From Leptolyngbyaceae cyanobacterium (GTDB taxonomy: Bacteria; Cyanobacteriota; Cyanobacteriia; Phormidesmidales; Phormidesmidaceae), in assembly GCA_965263355.1 (NCBI GenBank), contig CBDHHL010000011.1:32383-96382 (forward strand): a DNA stretch of 64,000 bases, read 5' to 3'. Both the position numbers and the translations under genes were made by a program. Below, piece after piece: positions 24 through 55,253 of the stretch. The notes beneath the pieces are model-generated. The model was not told the origin of the DNA, ran no database searches, and saw only the letters and a list, made by a program, of their open reading frames with translations. Every line of letters starts with the position of its first letter. Position 1 is the first letter of the stretch.

Positions 24-1088
24 ATGCTTTTGCCGGAGATCCCTGGCGGATATGATCCAGCGCTAGTGGGTGGCTATTTCACGGGCACTCAGGTTTTCCA
101 AGGAGGCACGCTTTATACAGCGAATAAAGCGAGTCTTGATCCGCCGGGGCCTTTTGTGGCGGCAGATTGGGACACATTTGTTACTGAGGACGATGGAAAA
201 GAGATCACTCAACAACTGGACGGTGCCATGTTGGGCTATGCCTCTATTGGTTATCTGCAGAACGGGGGAACTTACCCACTGACGACAAATATAAATACAG
301 CCAAAAAAGTTGACGCGATTATCCCTCCAAACAGCGCTGTTACCGTCGACGGAACACTTTACACAAACGCAAGCTTAACTGAATCTCAAGGGCTTAAGCT
401 TTATAACGATGGGACAGGCTGGGTTAGGGAATCAGCAGGCGCTGAAGTCCCATCAAGCAGCCTCAGCTTCCAAGGACTGACATCGTTTTTCCAGTGGACT
501 GGGAATGTGACTTTGGGTACATCGGGGACTGAATCTCCCATCAGCATGGGCAATGGGACAGCGGTTGACCTGTCTCTAGCTACCCATGCCCTTTTTATCT
601 ATAAGGCGTTTCTATCGGCTAACAATCCCTATCTCTTTAGTGACTTGCAGGATCTTACTGCAGACCCCAGTACCCCATATCTATCGTTGGTCTATAACAA
701 CGGTCATATAGACGTGGAGTACGACCGGGCACAAACCGATCTCTCGGTGGGAGATATCATTTTCAGGCGAGGGGGATCTTATCAGGTAGTTTTAGTAAAG
801 GCCGAGTTTTTTACACTGGTTGAGACCGGATTAACAGCCCCTACTACCCATGTAGTCTCTTTGGACCAGGCGGGAAGCGTTAAAACGTTTCTAAACGGTC
901 AGACCTTTGTTAATCTCATGGATATGAAATTTGCCGAAGTAGCGGTGACCCTGGACCCTGGTTTTAGATTAGCGTTAGCGAACCCTAATCCGGCTCCGGG
1001 AGTGACTATACGAGACTATGACTTAGGGATAATCAGCATAGTCACCGCCTCAGATAAAACCATTAGGCTAGAGCAGGAGTCTATTTAA
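24..1088 (+). CDS. Putative virion/tail-associated protein (may be 5'-truncated by the window edge)
   Basis: Thr/Gly/Ser-rich, beta-type composition; frame is open to the window start; stop overlaps the next start (TAATG). Confidence 0.5.
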   Translation: MLLPEIPGGYDPALVGGYFTGTQVFQGGTLYTANKASLDPPGPFVAADWDTFVTEDDGKEITQQLDGAMLGYASIGYLQNGGTYPLTTNINTAKKVDAIIPPNSAVTVDGTLYTNASLTESQGLKLYNDGTGWVRESAGAEVPSSSLSFQGLTSFFQWTGNVTLGTSGTESPISMGNGTAVDLSLATHALFIYKAFLSANNPYLFSDLQDLTADPSTPYLSLVYNNGHIDVEYDRAQTDLSVGDIIFRRGGSYQVVLVKAEFFTLVETGLTAPTTHVVSLDQAGSVKTFLNGQTFVNLMDMKFAEVAVTLDPGFRLALANPNPAPGVTIRDYDLGIISIVTASDKTIRLEQESI

Positions 1089-3082
1089 TGGGCGTTATTC
1101 GCTATCTTCAAGGACTCGCGGAGTATCCTAGCCTCAATGAGTCTGATGTTGCTCAAACCCATGTCTATCATGCATTTGACCAGTCTACAGATTCCGCTAG
1201 AGAGTACAATCTACAATTATTTAACATAGGGGTTAGTGTCTCGGTAACCGCTATACAATTTAATCCAGGAGATTCTAGCGGACTTAAACCGGTTATCTCT
1301 CCCTATGCGATATCGCATATTTATTCTCCAGGAACCTATTATCCGTCTTATGTGATTACGTTATCCGATGGATCTAGCTTCACTCAGCCGTTACCGGTGT
1401 TAGAGATCGAGGCTCGGACTGAGCTTTTCTTATTCGAGACAGCCGGAAGCTTTTCCTTCACTACGCCTACCTATCCCCACACTCATATGTCGATATACGG
1501 GGTAGCCGGAGGCGGAGGTGGAGGAGGTGGCCAGTTTAACACGTTCTCTTTTTCTATTCTTTCAGGGGGCGGAGGTGGCGGGGGTGGCGCTGCTTTTGAG
1601 CTTGTACGTTGGCCCTATGGGACTGATTTAAGGGGCCAAAGTGTTACCGGTTCTGTAGGGTCTGGGGGGAGCGCAGGGTCCGGAGGTGATGGTGGCCCGA
1701 CACCAGGGGGCAGCGGGAGAAGCACTATTATTAATGCCTGGGGTAACTTTCCGAGGATCCTTGCTCGCGGTGGCTCTGGGGGGCAACATGCTAGCCTGAC
1801 AAACCCTCAAGGGGGAGCAGGGGGCCAAGTTACCGAGGGCTTCGCATCACTAGTCACTATTCCCGGTGGTAGGGGAGGCAATGGCGCTCGGGGGATAGCC
1901 AACACTAATAACACTCCTGGCAATGGGGCGTCTTCCGGAGGCACTGCGGGCGGCGGCGGCGGCGCTCATTCATCGGGAAACTTATTTCCGGCTAACGTTG
2001 CAACCGGGGCATCCGGTTCTAATAGTGCTCAGGAGATAACGCAAGATAACCCGAGAGTCTATGGTGATGGTGGCGATGGGGGAAACGCTCGGTTGTTCTT
2101 GAGCGCTCAATCAGGGGCCTTGCGCGGCAGTGGCGGAGGTGGCGGGCCAGGAGCACCAGGCAATACGGGCATATCTCCCAGGGGAGGATCGGGGGCTAGA
2201 GGATATGTCTTTTTTGTTTTTGAGGATCTGAGCCTGAGTGCTCCAGCTACAGCTGATGAAGTTATACTATTTAACACTCCGGGGCCATTCAGTTTCACAG
2301 TGCCGATAAACCTTTATAGCGAATTTAGACTATATGCCTCAGCTCCAGGCGCAGGGGGCGGAGGTGGCGCAGTCAGTGAATATAGTAACGGTAAGTCTGG
2401 TGGTGGCGGAGGTGGGGCAGGAGACAGTCTAGAACTGGTGCAGGCGTTCCCGTTGTCACTGCAAGGGCAAACGATATCCGGGACTATCGGCAATCCGGGA
2501 ATTGGTGGACCGGCAAACATGAATGGTACCTCGGGAGGTCAGGTAGTCATAAACGCTGTAGGGCCGTTTGAGGCTATAACACTCAGGGGCGGCATCGGTG
2601 GCGGTGCTGGCCAGATCTCCACCGTAGATACTGTAGATATTGCCGGGGGTTTAGGTGGACCAGGGGGCAACGGCAGCTCTAGTATTCCTGGCATCGTTTA
2701 TCGTAATGGTTCCCAAGGGGGCAACGGAGCCAGCGCGTTACCTAATGGACAGCTGGGGGCTACCCAGTCTCAAGGGGGCACAAGTAACGGGGGTCCGGGT
2801 TCCGGCAGTGGGGGAGGATCAGCCAGCGGGGGGTCCGGTCCAACGGCGTTTGGTATCCCTGGTGGTGGCGCTGGCAATGGCGTCGTGATCCCTGATAAAG
2901 ATAACCCTAACGCCTTTGGAGCCGGAGGTAAGGGGGGCAACTTTGGAGGCACTACGAATCCGGCTAGTGATGGTTCGGGACCAGGTGCCGGTGGCGGCGG
3001 GGGTACCGGCTCGGATGGCACTGTAGATGCGTCGGGAGGTAACGGTGGGGGAGGATATGTGCTCATTGTCCTAGTGGCTTAA
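1088..3082 (+). CDS. Glycine-rich tail fibre/adhesin-like protein with two tandem Gly-rich domains
   Basis: Two related blocks (LFETAGSFSFTTP..GGGGGGGG..GARGYVFFVFE and LFNTPGPFSFTVP..GAGGGGG..GGGGYVLIVLV), typical of phage Gly-rich receptor-binding proteins. Confidence 0.75.
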   Translation: MGVIRYLQGLAEYPSLNESDVAQTHVYHAFDQSTDSAREYNLQLFNIGVSVSVTAIQFNPGDSSGLKPVISPYAISHIYSPGTYYPSYVITLSDGSSFTQPLPVLEIEARTELFLFETAGSFSFTTPTYPHTHMSIYGVAGGGGGGGGQFNTFSFSILSGGGGGGGGAAFELVRWPYGTDLRGQSVTGSVGSGGSAGSGGDGGPTPGGSGRSTIINAWGNFPRILARGGSGGQHASLTNPQGGAGGQVTEGFASLVTIPGGRGGNGARGIANTNNTPGNGASSGGTAGGGGGAHSSGNLFPANVATGASGSNSAQEITQDNPRVYGDGGDGGNARLFLSAQSGALRGSGGGGGPGAPGNTGISPRGGSGARGYVFFVFEDLSLSAPATADEVILFNTPGPFSFTVPINLYSEFRLYASAPGAGGGGGAVSEYSNGKSGGGGGGAGDSLELVQAFPLSLQGQTISGTIGNPGIGGPANMNGTSGGQVVINAVGPFEAITLRGGIGGGAGQISTVDTVDIAGGLGGPGGNGSSSIPGIVYRNGSQGGNGASALPNGQLGATQSQGGTSNGGPGSGSGGGSASGGSGPTAFGIPGGGAGNGVVIPDKDNPNAFGAGGKGGNFGGTTNPASDGSGPGAGGGGGTGSDGTVDASGGNGGGGYVLIVLVA

Positions 3083-3152: not shown

Positions 3153-3896
3153 ATGCCTGACGCAGCATTAGCAAGAGCTGGATTTGAATTCAATCCTGAT
3201 CCCGTTATCTTTGGGAATTCACAACGCAAAATAGTCCTTGCTAATCCAGCGGCGGCTAGACTTTTTGAGTACGAAAATCCAACGGCAATGGTTGGCTTGA
3301 AAGTCTACAGTTTGGTTCCTGAATCTCTTATATCAGAAAGCGCTCATGACAGAATGTATGACGCGTTTCTACGTGGGCAGAGGACCCGTGATATGGGTTC
3401 TGAAGCTCCGCTATTTGGCAAAACACGAATGGGACGACAGATCCCTATCTGGCTACGACTATTTATTGTCAATCACGAAGGAGAAACCTATGTAGGCGAA
3501 GTCGTTCGAGACCGCACAGAATATTTACGCCAAGAAGAACAAATAAAGGAGCAAGAGCAACAGGAACGAGATTTGATCTTGCAATTGGAGAAATCCAATA
3601 AAGAACTGAAAGCGTCCAACAAGGATATGCAAGTTCAATTGCGCCAGTCTGAGCTACAAGAACTTGTCGTTAAGTGGCTGATCTATGCGGGTGTTTTTTT
3701 CTATCTGACCCCATTTTTATTAAGTATTTTTAGGCGAGTGCCAACGGAACTGATGTCTTTTGGCAGAGACGCTACGATCCTAGTAATCGGGGCACTCGTT
3801 AATGCGACCGGTGCTGCCGTGGGGATTGTATCAAAGGCCAAGGACATGGCTAATGAAAAGCCGATAGATAGCAAAACTCCTAATGCGAAACGATAG
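3153..3896 (+). CDS. PAS-domain protein with coiled coil and two C-terminal TM helices
   Basis: PDPVIFGNSQRKIVLANPAAARLFEY..MVGLKVYSLVP..HD..GKTRMGRQIPIWL..YVGEVVRDRTE is a classic PAS/PAC signature; followed by a Q/E-rich coil and two hydrophobic segments. Confidence 0.85.
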   Translation: MPDAALARAGFEFNPDPVIFGNSQRKIVLANPAAARLFEYENPTAMVGLKVYSLVPESLISESAHDRMYDAFLRGQRTRDMGSEAPLFGKTRMGRQIPIWLRLFIVNHEGETYVGEVVRDRTEYLRQEEQIKEQEQQERDLILQLEKSNKELKASNKDMQVQLRQSELQELVVKWLIYAGVFFYLTPFLLSIFRRVPTELMSFGRDATILVIGALVNATGAAVGIVSKAKDMANEKPIDSKTPNAKR

Positions 3897-4518
3897 AGCA
3901 TTGTTTCCGTTTCTTAGAACACAATTGGGTCGGGCGTTCATAATCGCATCGATTGGACTATTTTTCGGCCTAGTTCTTTTCTGGACAAGTCATACTCAGT
4001 TTAGCGAGGCTTGCTTGCAAATCAAAACGCCTGGTTCTATAGCTCAGGGCATCGCTAGAGGGCTTATTTATCAGCAGAGCATCGAAGATGTTATTACATC
4101 CATGGGAGATCGCTTGAACGCTCAATGGGTAGGGTCATTTTTGTATGATGAGGATCAGCGTAGGCGCTTTAGTTTTGCTATCGCACGGATCGGAGTGCCG
4201 GTATCGGCTACCTACGGGTGGTTAGACATCCAACAAGAAGATATATATTTAGAACAGCTCGATTATCATAAGTTAGGTCAATGCTGGGTCAAGCCTACCA
4301 AGGATCTCCCAGAGGGTCTATTGAGACAGCAGCTAGAACCAAATAATATTCAGCTAACTATCTCCTGTCCTATATTGGCCCAGAATGGGGATATATTTGG
4401 ATATGTAGCCTTTGGCTTTGATAGAGTCATGGCAAACAAAGAAACTGTTGCGGAGTCTATTAGGGCAAGTCCTATCTTTGCGTTTGATGCAAGTAATGCA
4501 GGTTTTTTCGGGAGCTAA
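3883..4518 (+). CDS. Single-TM protein with GAF-like domain (T4 holin T-like architecture)
   Basis: N-terminal TM (AFIIASIGLFFGLVLFW); C-terminal TISCPILAQNGDIFGYVAFGF GAF-like strands; overlaps the PAS gene by 14 nt. Confidence 0.5.
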   Translation: MRNDRALFPFLRTQLGRAFIIASIGLFFGLVLFWTSHTQFSEACLQIKTPGSIAQGIARGLIYQQSIEDVITSMGDRLNAQWVGSFLYDEDQRRRFSFAIARIGVPVSATYGWLDIQQEDIYLEQLDYHKLGQCWVKPTKDLPEGLLRQQLEPNNIQLTISCPILAQNGDIFGYVAFGFDRVMANKETVAESIRASPIFAFDASNAGFFGS

Positions 4519-4521
4519 TCA

Positions 4522-5685
4522 ATGAGATACATCATCGAGACATCAGATCAATTTCAAAGTGCGCTTAAAGTTGTTGAGGCAAGCGATCGTATCCTGCTAA
4601 AGTCTGGCGTTTATCAACATGAAGAATACAACACTTCATGGGAAACACGGACCCGTGGAAATGCTTTTTTTGCTAGTGGGCTAAAAGGAACAGCCGAAGC
4701 ACCAATCAAGATAATGCCGTTTGGGGATGGTCCAGTGACTATAGTCTCTGACACAAATGGTTTAGCAATAAAAAACTCCAATCACGTTTATATCAGTGAT
4801 ATAGAGTTTGCAGGTCATAGCCAAGATCTAGACCTAGACTATGCGTTATCTCTATGGTGGGAAGATGCGCCGATCCAAATAACAGGACGGGGCATCGCAT
4901 TAAACGATTGCTCAAATATCAAAATTCAGGGATGTAAGATCCATCATTTCCCCGGTGGGGGCATTACTAACAAGGATGGACACTCTCATCTGATTAAAGG
5001 CAACGCAATCTATCATAATTGCTGGTATTCAATTTCTGGCAGTCATGGCATTGCCAATAGCCAGCCAAAAGGGCCGCCGGAAACGTTGTATGAAATCTCT
5101 GAGAATCTGGTTTTTGGAAACCAATGCAATGTAATCTCACGAGTATTTTCTAAGGGCTTCGCAACCATGGCCTTAGATGAAGGGAATGGCATTCATTTTC
5201 AAAACGATACGGGCATCTATCGGGGCAATCTACTGATTAAAGACAATCTCAGTATGTTTAATGGCAAATCTGGAGTTGGCCTGAATACTGTTAAGGGGAA
5301 TGACAGCCGAATTAATGCCGTAAAAAACAACACATTTGCTAGCAATGCCCGCACCTGTGATGCAGGCGAGTATACAGAAAAAGATACGACCGCTCAAGTA
5401 GTCCGCAATGTAATGGCTGGGGGACGCCATATAAAGACTATGGGCGATTGCGGCAGCCACTATCAAGGCAATCAATGTCTCGATAGCTTCGCTTCGCTGG
5501 ATGAACTAATTAATGTTGAGACGGGCATAAATCCGATAGTTTATGAAGCGCTGATGAACTTTGATATCAAGATTGCGCCGTGCCCCATATCTGTTGATGC
5601 TGACTTTATTGAGCAACAAGCGAAATCGATAGCGGACAGTCAGCCTGATCATATGGCTCATATTGAGCTAGTTGAGCATCAGTAG
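4522..5685 (+). CDS. Right-handed parallel beta-helix (pectin-lyase-like) protein, possible depolymerase
   Basis: GTAEAPIKI motif and repeated NxxxxN/GI rungs. Confidence 0.75.
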   Translation: MRYIIETSDQFQSALKVVEASDRILLKSGVYQHEEYNTSWETRTRGNAFFASGLKGTAEAPIKIMPFGDGPVTIVSDTNGLAIKNSNHVYISDIEFAGHSQDLDLDYALSLWWEDAPIQITGRGIALNDCSNIKIQGCKIHHFPGGGITNKDGHSHLIKGNAIYHNCWYSISGSHGIANSQPKGPPETLYEISENLVFGNQCNVISRVFSKGFATMALDEGNGIHFQNDTGIYRGNLLIKDNLSMFNGKSGVGLNTVKGNDSRINAVKNNTFASNARTCDAGEYTEKDTTAQVVRNVMAGGRHIKTMGDCGSHYQGNQCLDSFASLDELINVETGINPIVYEALMNFDIKIAPCPISVDADFIEQQAKSIADSQPDHMAHIELVEHQ

Positions 5686-5764: not shown

Positions 5765-6544
5765 ATGGCTAATATTACTTTATTCCAATTTGAAGAACAT
5801 GGGGTACGTTTCGTTGGTACTCCTATGCAGCCTGAGTGGATTGCAAAAGATGTGTGCAACGTCCTGGGTTTAGCAAATACAAGTCAGGCGATGAGCAGAC
5901 TGCCTGACTTAGAAAAGGGTATATATATTAGTGATACCCTTGGTGGACCCCAAGAGTTGCTGACAATAAAAGAGTCTGGGTTATACAGACTCATGTTTAC
6001 CAGTAGAAAAGATGTGGCCAAAAGGTTCTCATCCTGGGTCACCCAAGAAGTTTTGCCGCAAATCAGAAAAACGGGATCTTATTCTGTCGCAGATTCAAGC
6101 CTGGAAACAGTCCCAGATATTCCTCAAATAAAAGAAGCTGCGTTGATGTACAGAGAGATATACGGCGAAGCGTACGCGCAATCATACGCGGATCAAAAGA
6201 TGCGCAAGTTTTATCCTGCACTTGCTGGCGAGCCAGCTCCAGCCAAAGAACGGTCATCTCTCAAGTCTGCCGAAGCACTTCTCACGCCTACTCAAATCGC
6301 TAAAGAGCTAGGTTTCAAATACAAAACAGGCAATCCCAATCCTCAGGCGGTTAATACCATGCTGGCAACGTTGGGCTATCAAGAAAAGATTGACAACAAA
6401 TGGTCTGCCACCGAGAAAGGTAAACCTTACAGCGATCGCAAGCCAGTCTCAACCAATAGCAGGTCAGATAAAGACCAACTCTTTTGGTATCGCTCAATTC
6501 TGGATGTGCTAAAGAGCGATTCTGAAACATTGGAGGCCGCTTAG
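5765..6544 (+). CDS. BRO-N domain phage antirepressor-like protein
   Basis: PEWIAKDVCNVLGL..ESGLYRLMFTSRKDVAKRFSSWVTQEVLPQIRKTGSY; C-terminal LLTPTQIAKELG. Confidence 0.9.
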   Translation: MANITLFQFEEHGVRFVGTPMQPEWIAKDVCNVLGLANTSQAMSRLPDLEKGIYISDTLGGPQELLTIKESGLYRLMFTSRKDVAKRFSSWVTQEVLPQIRKTGSYSVADSSLETVPDIPQIKEAALMYREIYGEAYAQSYADQKMRKFYPALAGEPAPAKERSSLKSAEALLTPTQIAKELGFKYKTGNPNPQAVNTMLATLGYQEKIDNKWSATEKGKPYSDRKPVSTNSRSDKDQLFWYRSILDVLKSDSETLEAA

Positions 6545-6546
6545 TC

Positions 6547-6891
6547 ATGACCAATTTAGACAGAATACAGCATTTAGTTTTTGAGTTTGACGAATGGTTG
6601 AGTGAAGCTAGCGAGAATGCCATACGCCAAAACTGTCGAGAACAGGGATCGGTTTTCTTCAAATTCATTGAAAATCGTGGCGTTTCTCGCGGGTGGGCAG
6701 CCAAGCTAATCCAAGTTGCAACTGGCTATAACGCTGCTGTTATTTGGCAAATCGCTAGTGTAGATCAAGTTCGCGAAGCATTGAACAGCTACTATCTAAG
6801 CATAAAAGGCATAGAGTACGAGGAGCTTGATTCAGGGAGAGGATTGAACGCACGACAAACCCGCGATATTGTTCGTAAGTTTTGGAATTGA
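6547..6891 (+). CDS. Hypothetical protein
   Basis: 114-aa ORF tightly packed in the operon. Confidence 0.6.
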   Translation: MTNLDRIQHLVFEFDEWLSEASENAIRQNCREQGSVFFKFIENRGVSRGWAAKLIQVATGYNAAVIWQIASVDQVREALNSYYLSIKGIEYEELDSGRGLNARQTRDIVRKFWN

Positions 6892-6894
6892 AAA

Positions 6895-7314
6895 ATGAAC
6901 TTAATCACTAAATTTGATGCTGCTTATAAAGGCGTAAACCAGCCGATGCCAGACCTCGACGCCTATATTTCAGGCGATGAATCAAAACAACAAGCAACAG
7001 ACTTTAGCTCATTTGAATTGCCTGAATCTGTAGCACTAGAAATGCTGAATGCAGAAGAGACTTATTGGGGGCATTACGGCTGGTTTGATGCCTGTATGGA
7101 TGCAATTTATCAGCTAGCCAGTGATGGCGAATATGCCAAAGCACAACAACATGCACAATGGCTTTTTGCCCGTAAACCTCAAGGTCTTGAGAAAATGCCA
7201 GGGTATTCAAAGCTAACTGAATATATCAATGGGATATTCCCTACAGATGAATTCGAAAAACGCAATGCTATGGCACAGATGCTCAAAACACGCATATTCG
7301 AAGAGGAGGAGTAA
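6895..7314 (+). CDS. Hypothetical protein
   Basis: 139-aa ORF tightly packed in the operon. Confidence 0.6.
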   Translation: MNLITKFDAAYKGVNQPMPDLDAYISGDESKQQATDFSSFELPESVALEMLNAEETYWGHYGWFDACMDAIYQLASDGEYAKAQQHAQWLFARKPQGLEKMPGYSKLTEYINGIFPTDEFEKRNAMAQMLKTRIFEEEE

Positions 7315-7319
7315 TTGTC

Positions 7320-7808
7320 ATGAATAAGCCGGATTTAATTGTTTGCATCCCTGACATGGATCGAATCCCTGACGAGCTTTACGATGAAGCTCAAGACATG
7401 ACTTGTGTTTTAGTAGACTACAGCGGCAATTCAAAAATTAAAAACGGACGACGCATGGGGACTGAAAAGAAAATAGACCCTGACAGCGTAGATCCTAGGT
7501 TCCCCGGCGCGCCTACTCATCAACGTTTGGGACCATGGCTAATTGATGATGAGTATGAAGAATATATTCCTGATATTCCTATGGTCAATGATGACTATGT
7601 AGAATATATTCCTGCTATCCCTACTCACGCATACAATGCAGTCTATACGTTTAAGTTTAGCTATGCCCCATTGCCAGATAAAGAGAACCCATGGGTAAAA
7701 ATCGAGCGGACGCAAGACTTAAGCAATCTTCCAAGGCAAGTTTTGCTTGATATGGGCTTATCAGAAGAACAGATTGATTCGGGCGTGTTAGAGCAGTACA
7801 AACTTTAG
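7320..7808 (+). CDS. Hypothetical protein with short internal duplication (DDEYEEYIPDIP/NDDYVEYIPAIP)
   Basis: GAGGAG RBS upstream; 162 aa. Confidence 0.65.
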   Translation: MNKPDLIVCIPDMDRIPDELYDEAQDMTCVLVDYSGNSKIKNGRRMGTEKKIDPDSVDPRFPGAPTHQRLGPWLIDDEYEEYIPDIPMVNDDYVEYIPAIPTHAYNAVYTFKFSYAPLPDKENPWVKIERTQDLSNLPRQVLLDMGLSEEQIDSGVLEQYKL

Positions 7809-7822
7809 AGCTTAGCGGACAT

Positions 7823-7873
7823 AAAACAAAAAACCTCGCTAATCAAGAAAAGGTTAGCGAGGTTTTTTGTTTT
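7823..7873. terminator. Bidirectional intrinsic terminator
   Basis: Perfect 20-bp inverted repeat AAAACAAAAAACCTCGCTAA / TTAGCGAGGTTTTTTGTTTT between convergent genes. Confidence 0.85.
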
Positions 7874-8132
7874 ATGCTGCCTTAACTTTACGTTCAGCGC
7901 GAATTTCTTTTTTATATCGCTTACAAAATGCCCCGTTAAACTTACGAAGAGAGTTAAATGCATTGCCATAAGCGATTTTAGCTTCCTGCCAACCGACCAT
8001 GGCCTTTGTAGATGCAGGTGTTAACCCATTGGCTTCTCTTGGATATTCGTTAAGTTTTTTGCTAGCTGCTTTTACTTGTTCCTCTAGAACGTTTTTAGCG
8101 GCTTTGTCAATGCAATAGTTGCCAGTCAACAT
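7872..8132 (-). CDS. Small phage early protein
   Basis: Directly downstream of the repeated promoter with a purine-rich RBS. Confidence 0.65.
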   Translation of the reverse strand: MLTGNYCIDKAAKNVLEEQVKAASKKLNEYPREANGLTPASTKAMVGWQEAKIAYGNAFNSLRKFNGAFCKRYKKEIRAERKVKAA

Positions 8133-8150
8133 AATCTTTTTCTCTCTCAA

Positions 8151-8211
8151 CTACTCTTCTAATATACCCTCACTCTTTGTCACAATACAACCCCCTGTCA
8201 TTCATCCGTAC
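8151..8211 (-). promoter_or_regulatory. Early promoter cassette, copy 1 of a 61-bp direct repeat
   Basis: Minus strand TTGTAT-N18-TATATT; 58/61 identical to 8904-8964. Confidence 0.75.
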
Positions 8212-8422
8212 GTTTTGCTGCCCTACTTTTCCGCTTTCTAAGCGTTGCTGCTGACGGGTCATCGACTGGGGGCCTACCGCCTACGGTTTTCCCTGGGGTA
8301 TGGCAGCGCTTGCATACGGTGCATTTATACTGCTGTCTGCCTGACTTCAGTACTTTGTTTTTTTGTGTCTTTCCCTGACAGTGTGGGCACTGTGGGTTAA
8401 GCGTTTTTGGTATTGGTGACAT
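8198..8422 (-). CDS. Zinc-ribbon (InsA-N-like) DNA-binding protein with GRPP/basic tail (alternative start 8485)
   Basis: CPHC..SGRQQYKCTVCKR followed by GGRPP..LRKRKSRAAKR. Confidence 0.65.
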   Translation of the reverse strand: MSPIPKTLNPQCPHCQGKTQKNKVLKSGRQQYKCTVCKRCHTPGKTVGGRPPVDDPSAATLRKRKSRAAKRTDE

Positions 8423-8540
8423 GGGGTTTCGCTCAAAGATTGAGCTTATTTTAATATCGTCAATGCTACAAGGGTTTTTTGCCATGGGGTGATGAGTAGG
8501 CGAACGGCAAAAGCCCCATCAGGGGGCTGATGCAAATTGG

Positions 8541-8888
8541 CTATTCATAAGTAGGAAATCTTATTTGAAGAAAATCATTAAAGTCTTCATCAGTAGGCTT
8601 AACCCACAGGTCAAAACAAGAATTATTATCAGCATTTTTAAGCGTCATTTCAGCTATCCTGGCCGCAGATCTTATACTCCAGCCATGCTGAAGATCATCA
8701 AAATCAAGACCTTCTATGATCTCCTCATCATTCTTGATAGAAAGAAAACCATCACAATGAATAACCTCCCAAACCTCAAAGTTAGCCGCATCGATATAGT
8801 ACAAAAAATCACCTACAGACAAAAGATGCCCATTTTTCTCTACCTCACTCATCAATTCTTCTTTCATGCTTGCTGACATTAAATTCAT
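8541..8888 (-). CDS. Small acidic phage early protein
   Basis: 115 aa, acidic, directly downstream of promoter copy 2. Confidence 0.65.
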   Translation of the reverse strand: MNLMSASMKEELMSEVEKNGHLLSVGDFLYYIDAANFEVWEVIHCDGFLSIKNDEEIIEGLDFDDLQHGWSIRSAARIAEMTLKNADNNSCFDLWVKPTDEDFNDFLQIRFPTYE

Positions 8889-8903
8889 TTTTTCTCTCGC
8901 TTG

Positions 8904-8964
8904 CTACCCTTCTAATATACCCTCACCCTTTGTCACAATACAACCCCCTGTCATTTATCCGTAC
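8904..8964 (-). promoter_or_regulatory. Early promoter cassette, copy 2 of the 61-bp direct repeat
   Basis: 58/61 identical to 8151-8211. Confidence 0.75.
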
Positions 8965-9095
8965 ATTGGGCATGACTACCTGGAAAATTTTTTGTTAGTA
9001 ATTTCTTTTGCCAAAAATGACCGCAACTGAAAACCTTGGTCTATTGCTGTCAGCATTGGAAGCTTGATACAATGCTGTCAGCACCCTAACAGTCC

Positions 9096-10670
9096 ATGGT
9101 CGCACCAAGCCTAAGCCTAACCCAGTTCTATCCCACGTTCACGGGTCGCACCCTGGCCAATACGATCAGGACTGATTTAGTGACGACGGGTTTTGATGTT
9201 TCGAATGATGGGGCTCGCATCGCGGGCACTGCGACCAATGGGAATAGTAATTATATTGAACTTTTATTAGATAATCCCATTAATGCAACGGGCATAATTT
9301 TCAAAGTCTTTATGCAGACGGCTTATCGGACCCAAAATATTCAGGTAGGGCTAGGGTCTGGACCAGATATCTATCAGTTATGGCAAACGCCAACAGACCC
9401 TAGAATCTTTTTCCGTCTGCATGACCTGTTAATTGATGTAAGACAGCCCCCTGTATACCCAGCTGTAGGGGCGTTTAATATTACAGCCGTTGATAGAATC
9501 CGGTTGAATTTTGACGCGATCTCATCTGCGACTAACGCGAATCTAGTTCGATTTGAAGGTATCCCTTATTACTTTGACGGAGATACGGAAGGGGTCCAGT
9601 TGATTGATGGCGACATTGGAAACCCGCTTAGTTTTGCTGCGTTATATGCGGCGTTAGAGGCATATAACGTGTTTGCGATCGCGTCACGAATCACCCCGCT
9701 TAACACGTTTCTAGGCACTAACAGTATGCAGTTTGTCGCGCCTGTGACGATGGGCAGCGCTGGGACAACTGCAGTAAGTCAAAACCCGTCTACGCTTATA
9801 TTTTCAAGCACGCCAAACAACGCAAACAACAACAATATAGACAACAGTACGAACCTGATTGAATCGGCATTTAGGGCTAGGTTTTCAGGGCTAACGGCAC
9901 CTGATAGGACATTTCAAAACCTGAATATGCCGTTTTTATGGGCAGATGAGGGGGGCGGGAATACATGGCCCAGATTGGTTTTGATTGGCCCATCTGCTGT
10001 CAATCTGGGGACTAGTGATTATCAAGGCGCTCGAATCCAGGCGGGAAGCGGGTTGACCAGTGGAGGAAATAATATTGTGATTGAATGGTTGGACTCAACA
10101 GCACCAACCGTTTACGAGTGGAACGGCACTGCCAACCTAGCTGGCTCGACGTTCAATAGTCCAGCCAGCACTTATTACATAGATATCCCGGCTAGTTTAG
10201 GGACAGTGACCCTGGATGTAAGCGATGTTAATTTTACGACAAGACCCACGGGTGATCGTGTTTTTAGAGCAGCGCCGGGAATTGGGGAGACGGTAACGAT
10301 CCGGGCTGCTGCTAGCGCTGCGTTTACTGTAGCTGCAAATGTGCAGAATGATGGGGCGGGTACTGTTGAAATTCTTGCACCACAAGTTACTTTAACTATT
10401 CAGGGCATTCCTGCAGGGGGGATTTTTACAATCTGGGATGACGAAGATCCAGACCCACAAGATCTAGGGACATTGTTGCAAGAAACTAGTCCTACTACAG
10501 GGGCTGATATTACTTATGTTGGCAGTAGTGGTAACGCTTTGATTTTGCAGTTTGTCCCTAATACGGGGGATAGCGCCCAGTACGAAGAATTTAATTTCCC
10601 GTTTACGTTCCCAGCTGCATCACAAAATTTAGACCTGTCAACACAATTAGAACTGGAGAATAGTTTGTAA
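9096..10670 (+). CDS. Putative virion structural/tail protein
   Basis: 524 aa, T/A/G/N-rich with almost no Lys; first gene of a coupled operon. Confidence 0.55.
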   Translation: MVAPSLSLTQFYPTFTGRTLANTIRTDLVTTGFDVSNDGARIAGTATNGNSNYIELLLDNPINATGIIFKVFMQTAYRTQNIQVGLGSGPDIYQLWQTPTDPRIFFRLHDLLIDVRQPPVYPAVGAFNITAVDRIRLNFDAISSATNANLVRFEGIPYYFDGDTEGVQLIDGDIGNPLSFAALYAALEAYNVFAIASRITPLNTFLGTNSMQFVAPVTMGSAGTTAVSQNPSTLIFSSTPNNANNNNIDNSTNLIESAFRARFSGLTAPDRTFQNLNMPFLWADEGGGNTWPRLVLIGPSAVNLGTSDYQGARIQAGSGLTSGGNNIVIEWLDSTAPTVYEWNGTANLAGSTFNSPASTYYIDIPASLGTVTLDVSDVNFTTRPTGDRVFRAAPGIGETVTIRAAASAAFTVAANVQNDGAGTVEILAPQVTLTIQGIPAGGIFTIWDDEDPDPQDLGTLLQETSPTTGADITYVGSSGNALILQFVPNTGDSAQYEEFNFPFTFPAASQNLDLSTQLELENSL

Positions 10671-14541: not shown

Positions 14542-15756
14542 CTAGAAGCTTAGCGATAACTGCACTTCTACTAACCGGCTAAACAGAGCATTCGCATCGC
14601 TGGATTGACCAGTCTTACAAGCGTTCACTGTCCGTTTTACTTCGTGGGCTATATCCAGCCCCGAATTCTTGATATTGACGGCTGCATTGCCATCTCTGTC
14701 GTGATGGGCTCCACAACCTAAACAGGTGATCTCTCTAACTGAAAGATCCAACTTACCCCAGCTGTAGCCACACACAGAACAGATCTGGCTGGTGGGTTCC
14801 CATCGGCTGATGACAGAAACATTGCGACCATACATGACCGCTTTTGCCTCACACATTGCCCGAAATTCAGACCAACCAGCCTCACTGATTGCCCGTGCCA
14901 ATCGACGGTTTTTAACCATCCCCTTGACATTGAGATCTTCCAGGCAGATTACACCAAACTCACGGATCAACCGAGTCGAAAGCTTGTGTAGGAAATCCTT
15001 ACGAATATCCCTGATCTTGGCTTTGATCTTAGCGATTCGCAACCGGGCACGATGCCAACGGTTAGATCCCTTTTGACATCGTGATAAATGGCGTTGTGCT
15101 CGCTTGATCTTGCGGTTTAGCTTGGAGTAGTCGGGACTGTCGATTTTTGGGTCTTTGCCAATACTGAGCACAGCAAAGGTTTTAATCCCCAGATCCACCC
15201 CTACCGCATCCGCTAGCGCAGCTAACGGCTTAATCAGGACACCTACAACACAACTAATAAAGTATCGACCTGCACGGTCTTTGATGACGGTTATAGAACT
15301 CGGTTCACTGGGCAATGGTCGTGACCACTTGGTTTTGATGGCCCCAACCTTGGCTAGACAAACCTTGTTCCCCTGAATAGAGAAACCACCTTTACGAAAC
15401 CGGGCAGACTGCCGATTATCTTTCTTTTTAAACCGGGGAAAGCCTACTTTTGAACCCTTCCGTTTCCCACTACAGGACTCGAAAAAGTTCTTAAACGCTG
15501 TTCCCAGATCAGCAATGGACTGTTGCAGGGGAATATTAGACACCTCTGACAACCATTCACGCTGGGGATACTGCTTAGCCAGCGTGATACAGAGCTTTTG
15601 TAGCTCGGCATTTGTCGGCCATGCTTGATCCTCTGGTGTTGCTAAAACCCACGCTAACGCATCGTTCCAGACGACACGACAGCACCCGAATAGCTTTGCT
15701 AACTCGGATTGCTGCGTTTTATTTGGATAAATTCGGTACTGGTAGCGCAGTTTCAT
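14542..15756 (-). CDS. tnpB: RNA-guided endonuclease TnpB
   Basis: YQYRIYPN N-terminus; RuvC motifs GVDLG, ICLEDL, HDRDGNAAVNI; CSVC..CLGC zinc finger. Confidence 0.95.
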   Translation of the reverse strand: MKLRYQYRIYPNKTQQSELAKLFGCCRVVWNDALAWVLATPEDQAWPTNAELQKLCITLAKQYPQREWLSEVSNIPLQQSIADLGTAFKNFFESCSGKRKGSKVGFPRFKKKDNRQSARFRKGGFSIQGNKVCLAKVGAIKTKWSRPLPSEPSSITVIKDRAGRYFISCVVGVLIKPLAALADAVGVDLGIKTFAVLSIGKDPKIDSPDYSKLNRKIKRAQRHLSRCQKGSNRWHRARLRIAKIKAKIRDIRKDFLHKLSTRLIREFGVICLEDLNVKGMVKNRRLARAISEAGWSEFRAMCEAKAVMYGRNVSVISRWEPTSQICSVCGYSWGKLDLSVREITCLGCGAHHDRDGNAAVNIKNSGLDIAHEVKRTVNACKTGQSSDANALFSRLVEVQLSLSF

Positions 15757-15798
15757 GCCATCATTATACCTACATCGTCTATACAACGTCTAGACATA

Positions 15799-18604: not shown

Positions 18605-19369
18605 TCAATCCCCAGATTGCGTCTTTATAACTCCAAAAGCAGTCAACGACACAATAACACCGCTAATCAATTTATTAATCAACTCAGGGTCAATCCCCAG
18701 TAGAACGACTGCAATCAACGCGATTAAAACGCCCAGCACCGTCCAAAGCTTTTTCAATTTCTGCCATGACGTGTAAAGTTGAGCAATCTTATGATTTTGA
18801 TTGGCTTCTGCTAATTTCTCTTTTTGATGCTGAGCAGTTAAATATTCTACTTGTTCCTGCAACGCGATCACATCGCCCACTAGCTGCGAGTTTTCAGCAT
18901 TTTTAGACTCTAGTTGCGACTCCAAATATACGTTGCGAGCGCCCATCGTTTTAAGGGGATCAACCTCGTTTTCCCCCTCTAACTGTTCGCTTTTCAGCCA
19001 TTGAAACCGGCATTCATATTTAGCCCCTTGAAGCTGAGGAACAATCAATAATTCACGGATGCCAGGGTGTAATTTTAGAGGCGTTTCAATTCGCTTCCCA
19101 TCATAATAAACGCCTAGCCCGCTTTCAGTCCCGTTGCCATCTTTAATATAGTATTCTCCGTCTGAACTGTAAGTAATAGTGGCCTGACATCGACTAATGC
19201 GTTTCTGAATTAAGGCAGGAGCAATAGCACCAATCCGAATATACGAATCAGCTTCATATACCCCAGGAGATCGACCGATTCTAACCGGCACCTGAGCCAG
19301 GTTGATTTCATGCGTTAGTTCTCTGTCTCCACATCGCTCAATTACGCGTGGGCTTAACCATGTATCCAT
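18605..19369 (-). CDS. FHA-domain protein with coiled coil and two C-terminal TM helices
   Basis: VRIGRSP..ISRCQATI..YYIKDG FHA signature, then coil, then hydrophobic hairpin. Confidence 0.75.
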   Translation of the reverse strand: MDTWLSPRVIERCGDRELTHEINLAQVPVRIGRSPGVYEADSYIRIGAIAPALIQKRISRCQATITYSSDGEYYIKDGNGTESGLGVYYDGKRIETPLKLHPGIRELLIVPQLQGAKYECRFQWLKSEQLEGENEVDPLKTMGARNVYLESQLESKNAENSQLVGDVIALQEQVEYLTAQHQKEKLAEANQNHKIAQLYTSWQKLKKLWTVLGVLIALIAVVLLGIDPELINKLISGVIVSLTAFGVIKTQSGD

Positions 19370-21363: not shown

Positions 21364-21508
21364 CCAAAAAAAATACCCCGCAATCCATGAGTTGCGAGGC
21401 AGTAGCCGATTAAGGAGAAAAGGAGAAAACAAGCTAATAAAAACCCCGCTTTCGATACAATAGTAGCATCAGGGGCCAAATTTGGAAATTGTAGAACAGG
21501 AGAGGGCC

Positions 21509-22345
21509 ATGCCTAAAACCTTGACCGCTAAACAGGACACTTGGCTACTGAGAATAATCACCCAATCTAGCAAGCTGCCTGAAGACCAAAAGTTCAAGCT
21601 GCATGAAGGCGACGTGCTTGAACTGAATTGGGCCGAAGCTCAACAGGACGATGCAGGCACACCGATTGATGAGGGCAACTATGCTCAAGTTTCACTAAAA
21701 AGAAAAAAGCAAAAATTTCATAACTGGTTTTGTTTCCTAAAACACGTCGTCATCGGCGGCACTGATGCGCAGAAGAAGCAAAAGGCAGTCGGGAATACAA
21801 TCACAACACTTAATGGCGGGATAGAAAACCAGCCCAAACCAATTGTAAACGCCTACGACTTCAAATTTTCGTTACCTGGCAGCTCTGGCACCTTTAACAT
21901 GAGCGCCCCCATTCGCTATGGCGAGGGAAGAAACAAATGGTATGAGGCGCTACATTTTGACCCAAAAACAAAATCATGGCGCAAGCCCGCTGATGCTGGC
22001 GTTGTAAGTCGAATTGTTGCCCACGATACAACTATTGAAAAGTTCAGAGCTGTTATTGCAGATGCGTATCAAACGACGCCTGAGAAAGTCAGCATTTCAT
22101 TTAACAGCTGGTATCGCGACCCTGAAACCAACCGTCGTGTAGGCGGTGCGAGTCGTTCTCGTCATTGCTATGGTGACGGGACGGATTTTCTTGTATTTAT
22201 TAACAAAAAACAAATTCCATGCCACAAGATCAACGCGATTTTGCGGCCATGGTGCGTTAGAAATGGCGTTGCCTTGGCGTCTGCCAGTGTGTTCACGCAT
22301 GGGGACAGTAGGGGCTATTTCGCAGAATGGAACTATGGATTTTAA
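21509..22345 (+). CDS. Peptidase M15 family endolysin with cyanobacterial-type N-terminal domain
   Basis: NSWYRDPETNRRVGGASRSRHCYGDGTDF..FTHGDSRG. Confidence 0.9.
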   Translation: MPKTLTAKQDTWLLRIITQSSKLPEDQKFKLHEGDVLELNWAEAQQDDAGTPIDEGNYAQVSLKRKKQKFHNWFCFLKHVVIGGTDAQKKQKAVGNTITTLNGGIENQPKPIVNAYDFKFSLPGSSGTFNMSAPIRYGEGRNKWYEALHFDPKTKSWRKPADAGVVSRIVAHDTTIEKFRAVIADAYQTTPEKVSISFNSWYRDPETNRRVGGASRSRHCYGDGTDFLVFINKKQIPCHKINAILRPWCVRNGVALASASVFTHGDSRGYFAEWNYGF

Positions 22346-22349
22346 GAAA

Positions 22350-23087
22350 ATGAAAGTAACATTTTTACAGGATTCATTCCTGAAACACAGGCCGGTCCCC
22401 CCTGACCAACTAGGGGACTACGAGAAAGAACCAGTCAGAGCGGGCGAATGGATTAATATAATTGCAGCAAGACCCGAATTAGAGCGTGACAATTTATATA
22501 TCACGCTATCTCAAGATCCTGGTGAAAAATTTAAGACCGTCGACGGACGCAACAGTGTCTATCTAGTGCCCAGTCACACAGACTACGAAGTTGCAGATAC
22601 TACGGATCCTAATGTGCGTGCTGCAGCAGCGACATACAATCGAATTAGTGATCAAGGCTTAGAATTACTCAAAGCTTTTGAGGGCTGCAAGCTTACTGCT
22701 TACTATTGCGCTGCAAATGTCCTAACAATCGGTTACGGCAGCACTGGCAAGCATATTCAAGAAGGCATGACGATCACTCAGGATGAAGCCGACGATCTGC
22801 TGCACAAGGATTTGAAACGCTTTATGAATGGGGTCCAAGAACTGGTGACAGTACCCTTGACCCATGATCAGTTTTCGGCGTTAGTCAGCTTTGCGTTTAA
22901 CTGCGGGCTTGGCGCATTGGAGGATTCCACGCTATTAAAACGAGTTAACAACGAAGAATTCGAAGGCGTAGCCGATGCCTTCAATATGTGGGTTAAAGGC
23001 GGCAACAAAGTATTGCAAGGCTTAGTACGTCGTCGCAAGTCTGAAGCCCATCTATTTAATGAAGGAGTCTATAAATCGTTCGAATAA
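22350..23087 (+). CDS. Lysozyme (GH24) endolysin with related N-terminal domain (alternative start 22335)
   Basis: GLELLKAFEGCKLTAY..TIGYGST..QFSALVSFAFNCG..GLVRRRKSE. Confidence 0.93.
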   Translation: MKVTFLQDSFLKHRPVPPDQLGDYEKEPVRAGEWINIIAARPELERDNLYITLSQDPGEKFKTVDGRNSVYLVPSHTDYEVADTTDPNVRAAAATYNRISDQGLELLKAFEGCKLTAYYCAANVLTIGYGSTGKHIQEGMTITQDEADDLLHKDLKRFMNGVQELVTVPLTHDQFSALVSFAFNCGLGALEDSTLLKRVNNEEFEGVADAFNMWVKGGNKVLQGLVRRRKSEAHLFNEGVYKSFE

Positions 23088-23099
23088 TATTCAGTGAAA

Positions 23100-23138
23100 A
23101 TTGCCACTGGCATTAACAGTAACAACGCCAGTGGCAAT
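23100..23138 (+). terminator. Hairpin after the lysozyme gene
   Basis: ATTGCCACTGGC/GCCAGTGGCAAT inverted repeat; no strong U-tract. Confidence 0.45.
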
Positions 23139-23235
23139 GCAACGTAAAATACAAAATCCATTTTCTGTTTGCCATTAACGACGGAAACACCTTAGCTGAT
23201 CCCCATCAATAAAACCGCAATTATAGGGAAATCTG

Positions 23236-23454
23236 ATGTCTCAAAAGCAGAAAGAGCTATTCACTTCTAGCATGGCTCTGATTGGCGCGATCGCTTTGTG
23301 GTTCGTTAAATTCTCAGTGCTGCAAGCAATCGCCACTATCTGGATGTTTGCGACTATCTCAATTGCCATTATCAACGCGGGGTTCGACTTACATGAAGAA
23401 AGGATATTCAAAAAATGGGAAGGCGACTTCAAAGAAGAAGAAAAAGAAAGCTAA
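23236..23454 (+). CDS. Small 2-TM membrane protein (holin candidate)
   Basis: Two hydrophobic helices and a charged C-terminus, after the endolysins. Confidence 0.5.
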   Translation: MSQKQKELFTSSMALIGAIALWFVKFSVLQAIATIWMFATISIAIINAGFDLHEERIFKKWEGDFKEEEKES

Positions 23455-23475
23455 AAAGAAAGCTAAAAAGAAAAA

Positions 23476-23694
23476 ATGATCAAGATATTTAAAAAAATTA
23501 ACAAGATATTTAATAGGCTCTGGCAACCTATCCTGATAGTTTTTTTGCTAATGCATATCCTAAAAGCTGTCCCACTGTCTTTCCTACTGCAAGCATTTGG
23601 TCTATTAGTAGCCCTCGCGTTCACCTTAGCCGTTCTGCTATTTTTTGCAGGCGTATTAAGCATTGAAATTGCGAATTGTTTCCCGCGAAAATGA
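23476..23694 (+). CDS. Small hydrophobic membrane protein
   Basis: Basic N-terminus and long hydrophobic stretches; ATGA overlap with the lipase. Confidence 0.45.
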   Translation: MIKIFKKINKIFNRLWQPILIVFLLMHILKAVPLSFLLQAFGLLVALAFTLAVLLFFAGVLSIEIANCFPRK

Positions 23695-24482
23695 AGCAAA
23701 CTAAACTCATCTACCAAGCCCAACTGGCCAACGCTTCTTATCTGCAAAAACCAGCTGGCTTTCTTGAGCAATACAAGAAAATAACGATAGAAAATAATGT
23801 TGCTTGGTATTTCAAAAGCAAAGACAAAACAACCATTATTTTTAGGGGCACCGATACCCTATGGTCTGACTGGAAACGGTCTAATCTAATTTTCTGGCCC
23901 CATAAAGAATGTAAAGACTTCAAGGCCCATACTGGGTTTTACGATGGCGCTTTGAAGTTTATGCAGCATTGCCAGAAAGAACATTTATTAGATAGCCCGT
24001 TAGAACTGATTGGCCATAGCCTTGGAGGCGCGATCGCTTTGATGTTCGGCATAATTGCCGCTGACAATGGTTTTCCTGTAGAAAGTATCAGCACGTTTGG
24101 AGCACCCAGGGGCATGGATGAAGCCGGAGCCGATAAACACCGGGCGCTAGGCTTAGAAGGTAAAACTTGGCAGGTGCGTAATGGATCTGACCCCGTGTGC
24201 CGAATTATGCTGAGCTTCGATACAACCAAAAAAGTACTAGACCTGATCGGCTTAGATGTCAGGGTAGGCGCGTCACATCCATGGTGCCACGAAATAATTA
24301 CGAACCATCAGACGGGAAAAATTATAGAAAGCCCTGACGAATGGCAGAATGTTAGAGCCAAAGAGCCTGACACAGTAACCCGTATTGAAAAGTTTGCCTC
24401 AGCAATCAAGGGGCAGATTGCTGAGGCTTTCATAGTTGATGATCATATGATTTGGAACTATATCAAAGGCTTAGGAGGTTAA
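23691..24482 (+). CDS. Class 3 lipase (alpha/beta hydrolase)
   Basis: IIFRGT, AHTGFY, GHSLGGA, TFGAPR, NGSDPV and a C-terminal DH. Confidence 0.9.
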   Translation: MKQTKLIYQAQLANASYLQKPAGFLEQYKKITIENNVAWYFKSKDKTTIIFRGTDTLWSDWKRSNLIFWPHKECKDFKAHTGFYDGALKFMQHCQKEHLLDSPLELIGHSLGGAIALMFGIIAADNGFPVESISTFGAPRGMDEAGADKHRALGLEGKTWQVRNGSDPVCRIMLSFDTTKKVLDLIGLDVRVGASHPWCHEIITNHQTGKIIESPDEWQNVRAKEPDTVTRIEKFASAIKGQIAEAFIVDDHMIWNYIKGLGG

Positions 24483-54059: not shown

Positions 54060-55253
54060 ATGATTTTCAAAGCCTACATCGGGCTTTTTGCTTTGTTGTC
54101 TACACTCTGCAATCCGTGGGGCACAGACGACGAAGCAATTTTTTTATGGCCCAAACTTGTAATTCTGTTCTTGATTGCTGCATTAAATCAGTATTCAATC
54201 ACTAAAGCTAACTCTCGAATTATCTGGCACTGGCTAATCGGCTGGTTCCCCTGGTTGGCATGTGCATCAATTTCAACTTGGTTCGCGATCTTGCCTCATT
54301 ACAGTGTCCTTGGTTACTACGGAAAAGCTTGCGGGCTTCTTTGGTGGATAACCGTGGCTGTGTTTTTTTTGTTTAACAGACTAATCCTTAAAGAACGACC
54401 CGAACTATTCCAAGCTCAGTTGACAGGTTTCCATATTGGAGGGGTAATTAATGCAGCCGCTGGCCTCACTCAATGGGTACTTCACTTTTTTGGCATCGGG
54501 TTTGAGCAGTATCCCATGCATGGGCTGTTCGGAAACTTTGGCGCGTATGCCGGGTTTATGCTGATGTGTTGCGCCGTTGCTGCTCAGTACAAAGCCAATA
54601 AATGGCTATTGGTCCTTTATACGGTTGCCACGCTGAATACTGGTGTGAGAATAGCCATGCTGGGGTCCGTTATCTGCAACTTGATAGCTATTGGCTGGAA
54701 GCGAAGTATTCCTGTTGTACTCTCGGCACTAATCTTTATTGGAGTTGTTACAAACAATAAGCAAGTTGGGGAGACAGCATCACCCCATACTCCAGTGATG
54801 GCTCAGATCAGACGGATCAGTTCAAATCGAACCTACTATTGGGCTAGGGCATTCAGATATGCTCAGCGATCGCCTTTGATTGGCTACGGGTTCAATGGCT
54901 TGAATCTTCAAAAAGCGTTTCGTCAATGCCGCAAAGTGGGAATACTTCAATATTCGCGGTGGTCATATCAATGCTCGGATGGCACTCTTCCTGATGAAGA
55001 TACTAAGCATTCGTATAATATTTGGCTCGACAGGCTAATAGAAACAGGCTTCCTAGGCTTGCTAGCTTATGGCTGGCTATGGGCTTGGTTACTCTGGACT
55101 ATTCGCGGTAAGGTGCTTTTGGTGTCAGGAATATTTTTGCTGTGGTCTATTTTTTGGTACGACGCAGCCGCATTCAGTTGGATAATATTTTGGATTTTTT
55201 CTAATGGCGAATCTTTCAGACATTCCAAGCGAACGGCACGAATTAGCTCGTAA
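54060..55253 (+). CDS. O-antigen ligase / O-oligosaccharyltransferase-like membrane protein
   Basis: Multi-TM; GLFGN, TGVR, R..YW..SPLIGYG, HSYNIWLDRLIETGFLGL. Confidence 0.8.
   Translation: MIFKAYIGLFALLSTLCNPWGTDDEAIFLWPKLVILFLIAALNQYSITKANSRIIWHWLIGWFPWLACASISTWFAILPHYSVLGYYGKACGLLWWITVAVFFLFNRLILKERPELFQAQLTGFHIGGVINAAAGLTQWVLHFFGIGFEQYPMHGLFGNFGAYAGFMLMCCAVAAQYKANKWLLVLYTVATLNTGVRIAMLGSVICNLIAIGWKRSIPVVLSALIFIGVVTNNKQVGETASPHTPVMAQIRRISSNRTYYWARAFRYAQRSPLIGYGFNGLNLQKAFRQCRKVGILQYSRWSYQCSDGTLPDEDTKHSYNIWLDRLIETGFLGLLAYGWLWAWLLWTIRGKVLLVSGIFLLWSIFWYDAAAFSWIIFWIFSNGESFRHSKRTARISS

Follow-up and report, generated by a model that had tools for sequence, protein, structure and literature searches.

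A conserved gene pair for a predicted heme-type PAS membrane protein and a T-holin-like GAF protein in a phage of probable cyanobacterial host and in a cyanobacterial chromosome

Introduction

The holin T of phage T4 (gene t, PF11031; PDB 6pxe, 6px4, and 6psk) is a protein of about 210 aa with one transmembrane (TM) helix and a C-terminal GAF fold. Its gene sits after tail-fibre genes with no adjoining lysin gene, and in T5-type phages, whose holins belong to the same family, the holin gene abuts the endolysin gene. In PMC12162936, the cytoplasmic amphipathic helix of T is described as essential for hole formation and its periplasmic domain as regulatory only. The antiholin interface of T includes Arg104, Tyr110, and Phe111, and of the antiholins RI is periplasmic and carries a signal peptide, while RIII is cytoplasmic (PMC11413866). 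The lysis-inhibition systems in the cited papers answer superinfection via antiholins.

FixL and DosP are heme-PAS O2 sensors (cluster 3 of PMC10468136), and the distal Arg (Arg97 in DosP) is needed for O2 binding (PMC11543664). FG214 (PDB 10jx), a soluble transcription factor, is a heme-PAS redox switch that has a His on the distal side and in which Met172 is a possible distal ligand (bioRxiv 10.64898/2026.03.15.711900).

Here, we describe an overlapping gene pair coding for a PAS protein (P0001) and a GAF protein (P0002). We regard the pair as a genuine and conserved sensor of two genes, with a T-holin-like subunit, that has so far gone undescribed; gating of lysis by it is plausible, and O2 is disfavoured as the signal. 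No description of a PAS- or heme-coupled holin was found in the literature searched (titles and beginnings of abstracts, subscription journals being mostly uncovered), and within this scope the initial annotation, to which no such system was known, was upheld.

Results

The Gene Pair and Its Setting

The stretch analyzed (64,000 nt, hereafter the window) belongs to a tailed phage and contains genes for a tape-measure protein, a primase, a Dda-like helicase, a polymerase, an anti-repressor, DNA methyltransferases, an M15 peptidase, and a lysozyme. The contig on record for the pair is 96 kb long, and about one third of it lies outside the window. The HIP1 octamer, a hallmark of cyanobacteria, was found 19 times in the window compared to 0.61 expected, and the sole match of P0002 among annotated phages, a weak one, was to the Acaryochloris phage A-HIS1. 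From the HIP1 excess and this single phage match, a cyanobacterium is the most likely host. The features of the pair and its upstream neighbor are as follows:

1088–3082 (+), glycine-rich tail-type gene, 664 aa (Pfam Gly_rich_2, E 1.6e-17; PHROG 754 minor tail protein, E 3.8e-16)
3153–3896 (+), P0001, sensor subunit gene, 247 aa: PAS, coiled coil, two-helix membrane hairpin, short basic tail
3183–3521 (+), PAS domain of FixL/DosP/FG214 type, residues 11–123 (Pfam, PDB profile matches, fold)
3345–3347 (+), His65, predicted proximal heme ligand at the position of DosP His77 (alignments)
3405–3407 (+), Ala85, site of the O2-stabilizing distal Arg, DosP Arg97 (ungapped alignment, profile)
3516–3674 (+), coiled-coil linker, residues 122–174 (continuous helix, pLDDT 70–90)
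3675–3830 (+), predicted two-helix membrane hairpin, residues 175–226 (hydropathy; second helix Gly/Ala/Ser-rich)
3883–4518 (+), P0002, partner gene, 211 aa: 14-residue N-terminus, one TM helix, GAF domain of holin-T-like lineage
3925–3981 (+), single TM helix, residues 15–33 (hydropathy; N side more basic, N-in/C-out predicted)
4048–4482 (+), GAF domain, residues 56–200 (invariant His129, Cys134, and Ser-Cys-Pro 161–163)

Both ORFs are intact, with a 14-nt overlap, and no enzymatic output domain was found among the domains of P0001, just as initially annotated. The glycine-rich gene ends 70 nt upstream of the PAS gene, which agrees with the description of the pair as lying directly after a glycine-rich fibre/adhesin gene. 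In a variant contig of 952 bases from a public run, both the PAS gene and the overlap are covered with no gap, although this run may be the source sample and is then not independent support. A frameshift or assembly artefact was discarded, both genes being intact in many cluster members. Scans for promoters and terminators gave results at chance level. Downstream, a beta-helix protein gene (4522–5685, +) begins 3 nt past the GAF gene; it is absent from the chromosomal locus L009 described below, and the cluster of this protein and the close GAF cluster have contig sizes in common.

The PAS Domain of P0001

Three of the four Pfam families that matched the PAS region of P0001 exceeded their cut-off, and NCBIfam also places a PAS domain at about residues 11–123. 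The whole-protein models best touched by P0001 were those of FixL and DosP, with scores far under their cut-offs. Comparison of a five-sequence PAS profile with the PDB returned DosP, FixL, or FG214 in 14 of 16 matches, and the PAS model was most similar in fold to FG214 (10jx; Z 16.7, rmsd 1.9, 114 residues aligned), FixL (1d06; Z 15.0), and DosP (1v9y; Z 14.5). The segment that had been quoted for its likeness to FixL/Dos heme-PAS domains is present, and its His65, proposed there as the proximal ligand, falls on DosP His77. Like FixL and DosP, P0001 has the PAS fold (Z 13.7–15.0), a proximal His in F-alpha and a helical linker past the PAS domain; unlike these, it has Ala in place of the distal Arg and no kinase or phosphodiesterase, its linker leads into a membrane hairpin, and it is phage-encoded. 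Besides being the best fold match, FG214 has Met172 at the same offset from the proximal His as Met81 of P0001 (Met in 8 and Ile in 6 of 14 sequences), whereas the offset of the distal His of FG214 corresponds to Glu84. Searches with the PAS proteins (P0001 and the L009 copy) gave no match among annotated phages and PAS-only matches among plasmids.

His65 is invariant in the PAS alignment, and both His65 and the Arg at His+14 are shared by the phage and the chromosomal copies, whose PAS domains are 34% identical. The alignment with DosP is free of gaps between His65 and the end of the G strand and places Ala85 on DosP Arg97. Ala occupies this position in 14/14 sequences, which had been chosen via a pattern that includes the His (14/14 fitted the pattern). 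When the PAS profile was run on DosP entries, R97A scored higher (53.6 bits) than the wild type (50.4 bits). Two residues before this site, at position 83, 9/14 sequences have Arg or Lys and the window protein has Ser. Since the proximal His is kept and the distal Arg is Ala, the alignments and the model make it likely that the PAS domain binds heme and unlikely that it is a canonical O2 sensor; with Ala at the required site in 14/14 sequences, redox state or another heme ligand would be a likelier signal than O2. The identity of a canonical O2 sensor was dropped for P0001 as the distal Arg is missing, a point that had been overlooked in the initial annotation.

The Coiled Coil and the Membrane Hairpin

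The membrane-proximal part of the coiled coil (residues 156–174) is the best-conserved stretch among close relatives, with 89–100% identity in three of these and 36% in the L009 protein. Hydrophobic segments were detected at residues 175–193 and 208–226, the first being under the threshold in 2/5 sequences; the model is unreliable in the hairpin (pLDDT < 50 from residue 193). Close relatives share 77–94% identity in the hairpin compared to 63–76% in the PAS domain, and P0001 and the L009 protein share 41% identity in an alignment of 81 residues from this part. The hairpin of P0001 matched no known family and no holin family, and an Atlas search gave no usable match. PHROG 1544 matched the coiled coil and hairpin of the L009 protein (E 0.002), but had no match in either 5 reference phages or 14 controls and is thereby uninformative.

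Elsewhere in the window, a gene at 18605–19369 (−) codes for a protein in which an FHA domain and a coiled coil are followed by a membrane segment at the C-terminus, and which matched a holin family weakly (PHROG 1299, E 0.01). It has a sensor-linker-membrane layout like that of P0001, and it was not detected by the P0001 hairpin profile.

Kinship of P0002 to T Holins

The AlphaFold2 model of P0002 showed a GAF fold (mean pLDDT 80.8) and had 215 matches in the PDB at E ≤ 0.001, with GAF domains as the best among the matches listed. T4 T (6pxe) was matched with Z 13.1 and rmsd 2.8 (132 of 147 residues aligned). It took rank 5 in Foldseek and rank 8 by Z, where cyanobacteriochrome GAFs differ from it by no more than about 1; with T4 T ranked amid these, the fold alone does therefore not single out T. 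Among 1.84 billion representatives, a profile search yielded 16 relatives, and an 18-row alignment of the GAF family contains six invariant residues including His129, Cys134, and Ser-Cys-Pro. The top Atlas cluster for P0002 was 45% PF11031 (score 0.94), and the clusters listed were 89–100% viral. The top rows in BFVD were mostly phage proteins of about 190–260 aa, three of which are named holins.

The GAF-family profile scored 94% against seven T4-/T5-type holins and 92.4% with the TM helix removed, compared to 0.75% for the GAF-only profile against five E. coli GAFs, the cellular controls in this comparison being few and including no cyanobacterial GAFs. In the reverse direction, a T-family HMM gave 4.0–17.7 bits for 18/18 family rows (4.9 bits for P0002 itself) and −0.4 bits or less for these few cellular controls, and when applied to every six-frame ORF in three loci it reported the two GAF genes alone. 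T4 T as a single sequence scored 3.5% against the GAF family, which is less than the 5.2% of E. coli PtsP. The Pfam model PF11031 matched 0/18 members of the GAF family at E ≤ 1, compared to 394.7 bits for the T4 T control, and filing of P0002 under PF11031 was dropped.

P0002 resembles T4 T in its length of about 210 aa, its one TM helix, its C-terminal GAF fold, and the position of its gene after a tail-fibre-type gene; besides, T His145 and Cys175 are aligned with its His129 and with its Ser-Cys-Pro motif, respectively. It differs from T4 T in the missing PF11031 match, in a short N-terminus with no clear amphipathic helix, in its cysteines (Cys134, Cys162, and, in addition, Cys44), in having a PAS-hairpin membrane protein as partner, and in that the pair is also found in a chromosome. 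By a crude criterion, an 11-residue cytoplasmic amphipathic helix was seen in 7/7 T/T5 holins and in 5/17 GAF-family proteins, P0002 being one of the 12 without it (P0003 and two N-terminally short rows were excluded from this count and two double-GAF proteins included). The model of P0002 shows a helix at residues 9–12, so that a shortened, Pro-containing helix is possible. The T Cys175 position is kept in the GAF family, whereas a Cys after it was found in 0/18 members as opposed to the invariant Cys207 of T; Cys134 is invariant in the family in place of this second Cys. Of the antiholin-interface residues of T, Arg104 and Tyr110 are not kept and Phe is kept in 6/18. The partner P0001, for its part, resembles neither RI nor RIII, and no RI or RIII match was obtained.

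By the profiles and the model, P0002 is a remote relative of T holins and not a member of the T family. Because of the lack of a clear amphipathic helix and of the second Cys of T, it is doubtful as a self-sufficient T-type holin. The likeness to T4 T that had been noted from the sequence was thus borne out as to fold and remote T-family kinship, but hardly as to a holin acting by itself.

The single-pass protein ORF064 of phage A-HIS1 (PHROG 33305, annotated as hypothetical; 7689–8261 of L001) matches the GAF region of the family with 94% profile probability; unlike for P0002, no PAS-hairpin partner is seen, the phage collection containing A-HIS1 having yielded no PAS-hairpin relative. P0002 had no match among plasmids and P0030 none among annotated phages. 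Two GAF-family members, P0042 and P0043 (380–398 aa), have one TM helix and two tandem GAF-like stretches. Longer fused PAS/GAF forms were searched for among 8000 candidates of 409–2000 aa and none was found at E ≤ 1, which is weak evidence.

Conservation of the Pair and a Chromosomal Locus

For 11/11 close PAS proteins, the longest contig is of the same size as that of a GAF relative, from which co-occurrence, though not adjacency, was deduced. The size-matched pairs fall into four clusters, down to about 55–70% identity. As the longest contig alone was recorded per member, 6/17 GAF members are unmatched to a PAS partner, and among the 18 GAF-family rows the neighborhood was read directly for 2 and deduced from the longest-contig size for 4.

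A distant pair in the same order, also overlapping, was found in L009, where a PAS/coiled-coil/hairpin protein gene (258 aa) lies directly upstream of a GAF gene with an overlap of 29 nt. The PAS protein shows 32% identity to P0001 over its length, with the same His and Ala, and the GAF protein 24% identity to P0002. The gene order is psaD, trpE, cheW, cheR, the PAS/GAF pair, and then pentapeptide and rsmH genes, and a scan of 16 ORFs over 20.6 kb detected no phage or lysin gene. There is also a record of both proteins of the pair for a contig of 1.82 Mb, and the pair contains 3 HIP1 sites (2.2 per kb compared to 0.4–1.0 in the flanks). L009 is a locus of a cyanobacterial chromosome. Within it, 6821–10597 comprises cheW and cheR-TPR followed by the PAS/GAF pair; in clusters of the cheW/cheR type, receptor and kinase genes are expected downstream.

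Thus, the PAS and GAF genes form a conserved unit, and the expectation that they co-occur elsewhere was confirmed. The L009 pair is the best evidence for this unit and, at the same time, what speaks most strongly against a role in lysis alone. Scans of viral contigs and of GTDB revealed no further family loci, and one of two metagenome scans was also empty. As grounds for abandoning its proposal, the initial annotation had named a lack of holin activity or T-like fold in the GAF protein, of cofactor binding by the PAS domain, or of co-occurrence; nothing of the kind emerged in silico, where a predicted fold likeness to T and co-occurrence were both found.

Lysis Genes of the Phage

The lysins of the phage are encoded apart from the pair:

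21482–23694 (+), separate lysis cluster: M15 peptidase, lysozyme, and two 72-aa membrane ORFs, 17 kb from the pair

The first lysin gene lies 16,964 nt downstream of the pair, and none adjoins it. The two hydrophobic 72-aa ORFs (23236–23454 and 23476–23694, +) directly follow the lysozyme gene and had no match to holin or other families; by sequence and position they could be ordinary holin or spanin genes. As T4 t itself has no adjoining lysin gene, the distance of 17 kb does not refute a link to lysis. The cluster extends up to 24482 (21482–24482, +), where it also contains a class-3 lipase gene.

Discussion

We consider that the pair may form a transmembrane sensor of two subunits, by which the timing of lysis is tuned to the redox state of the host or to a non-O2 heme ligand, a tentative reading to which we give a probability of about 0.4. 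In this sensor, the cytoplasmic heme-type PAS domain of the first subunit would pass its state via the coiled coil to the membrane hairpin, and the second subunit would consist of a one-helix anchor and a T-holin-like GAF domain located outside the inner membrane, probably with a Cys134–Cys162 disulfide; the membrane helices of both subunits would meet. The heme would most likely read redox state or a non-O2 ligand. Since neither subunit has a catalytic domain, the output would most likely lie in how the membrane complex is assembled. For the phage, its most likely role would be to tune the timing of membrane permeabilization in lysis, similar to lysis inhibition and in trans to the lysins encoded 17 kb away, and the lesion would come from the hairpin or from separate small membrane proteins rather than from the GAF protein alone. 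A regulatory GAF subunit fits with the purely regulatory role given to the periplasmic domain of T in PMC12162936. Prediction of a complex of P0002 (residues 8–203) and P0001 (122–236) scored 0.00 in two runs, with the controls not folded, and carries no weight in either direction. This lysis-timing reading is favored by the gene pairing, the T-family kinship, and the position after a tail-type gene as for T4 t. It is weakened by the distant lysins, the 72-aa holin candidates, and the lysin-free chromosomal locus with 3 HIP1 sites in its pair, and also by the rank of 8 for T4 T, the single-sequence score of 3.5%, the 0/18 matches to PF11031, a control set free of cyanobacterial GAFs, and a hairpin that has no confident model and matches no holin family.

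It is almost as probable that the pair is a non-lytic membrane signaling module common to cyanobacteria and their phages, i.e., a split receptor with heme input inside and GAF input outside that could act via a host membrane partner in motility or chemosensory control, superinfection exclusion, or the physiology of the infected cell. The chromosomal pair directly after cheW and cheR, near psaD, trpE, and rsmH and with no phage genes seen, is what such a module would look like, as are the presence of both proteins on the 1.82 Mb contig and the HIP1 density above that of the flanks, which is as in long-resident host DNA but based on 3 sites; the remoteness of the lysins in the window and a pore-forming helix of T that is not clearly present in P0002 point the same way. 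However, the GAF subunit is closest to viral clusters and T/T5 holins and not to cellular receptors, no output domain or partner gene is common to the window and L009, and the chromosomal lineage, being one lineage seen over 20.6 kb, could be a retained phage remnant. A bolder form of the lysis-timing reading, in which the pair forms a heteromeric T-derived holin complex acting as a heme-gated lysis timer, with the PAS domain reading redox state (light/dark) or a gas ligand and the GAF domain a periplasmic cue, is in our view unlikely; if it were true, the chromosomal module would possibly be a redox-gated membrane lesion or cell-death switch.

The strict model of the initial annotation, with P0002 itself as a T-type holin and P0001 as an O2-binding antiholin, is improbable. 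P0002 matches T in size, predicted topology, fold, gene position, and the aligned His129 and Ser-Cys-Pro (T His145 and Cys175), the genes are coupled, and an Arg or Lys two residues before the Ala85 site in most relatives, though Ser in the window, might replace the distal Arg; but the amphipathic helix required in T and seen in 7/7 T/T5 holins is, by the 11-residue criterion, missing from P0002 and 11 more of the 17 proteins, 18/18 members have no Cys past the motif, and the Arg104 and Tyr110 positions are not kept. The loss of the distal Arg and a PAS identity (63–76%) below that of the hairpin (77–94%) among close relatives would also suit a PAS domain that no longer senses and serves as a dimerization scaffold, the pair then being a constitutive membrane component. 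This is likewise improbable, as His65 and the Arg at His+14 are shared by the phage and the chromosomal copies despite a PAS identity of 34% and the best fold matches are heme PAS domains.

If a holin-lineage protein is indeed wired to a heme sensor, the phage would set its burst time by the metabolic state of the host, and this would open a molecular way to study how lysis of cyanobacteria depends on light and redox state. Even without a link to lysis, an output-less heme-PAS/GAF membrane pair present in phage and chromosome would be an undescribed signaling architecture, and its natural Arg-to-Ala pocket predicts heme without stable O2 binding.

Some further observations were made on the phage. 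A region containing a Bro-N anti-repressor (5770–6881) is missing from one variant contig in the public run, where the depth falls; this block may be optional in the phage, the short side of the junction being 30 letters and thus weak. Two TnpB-family genes are present at 14542–15786 (−) and 40945–42129 (+). A multi-pass membrane protein without PHROG match is encoded at 54060–55253 (+) and presumably resembles an O-antigen ligase or polymerase.
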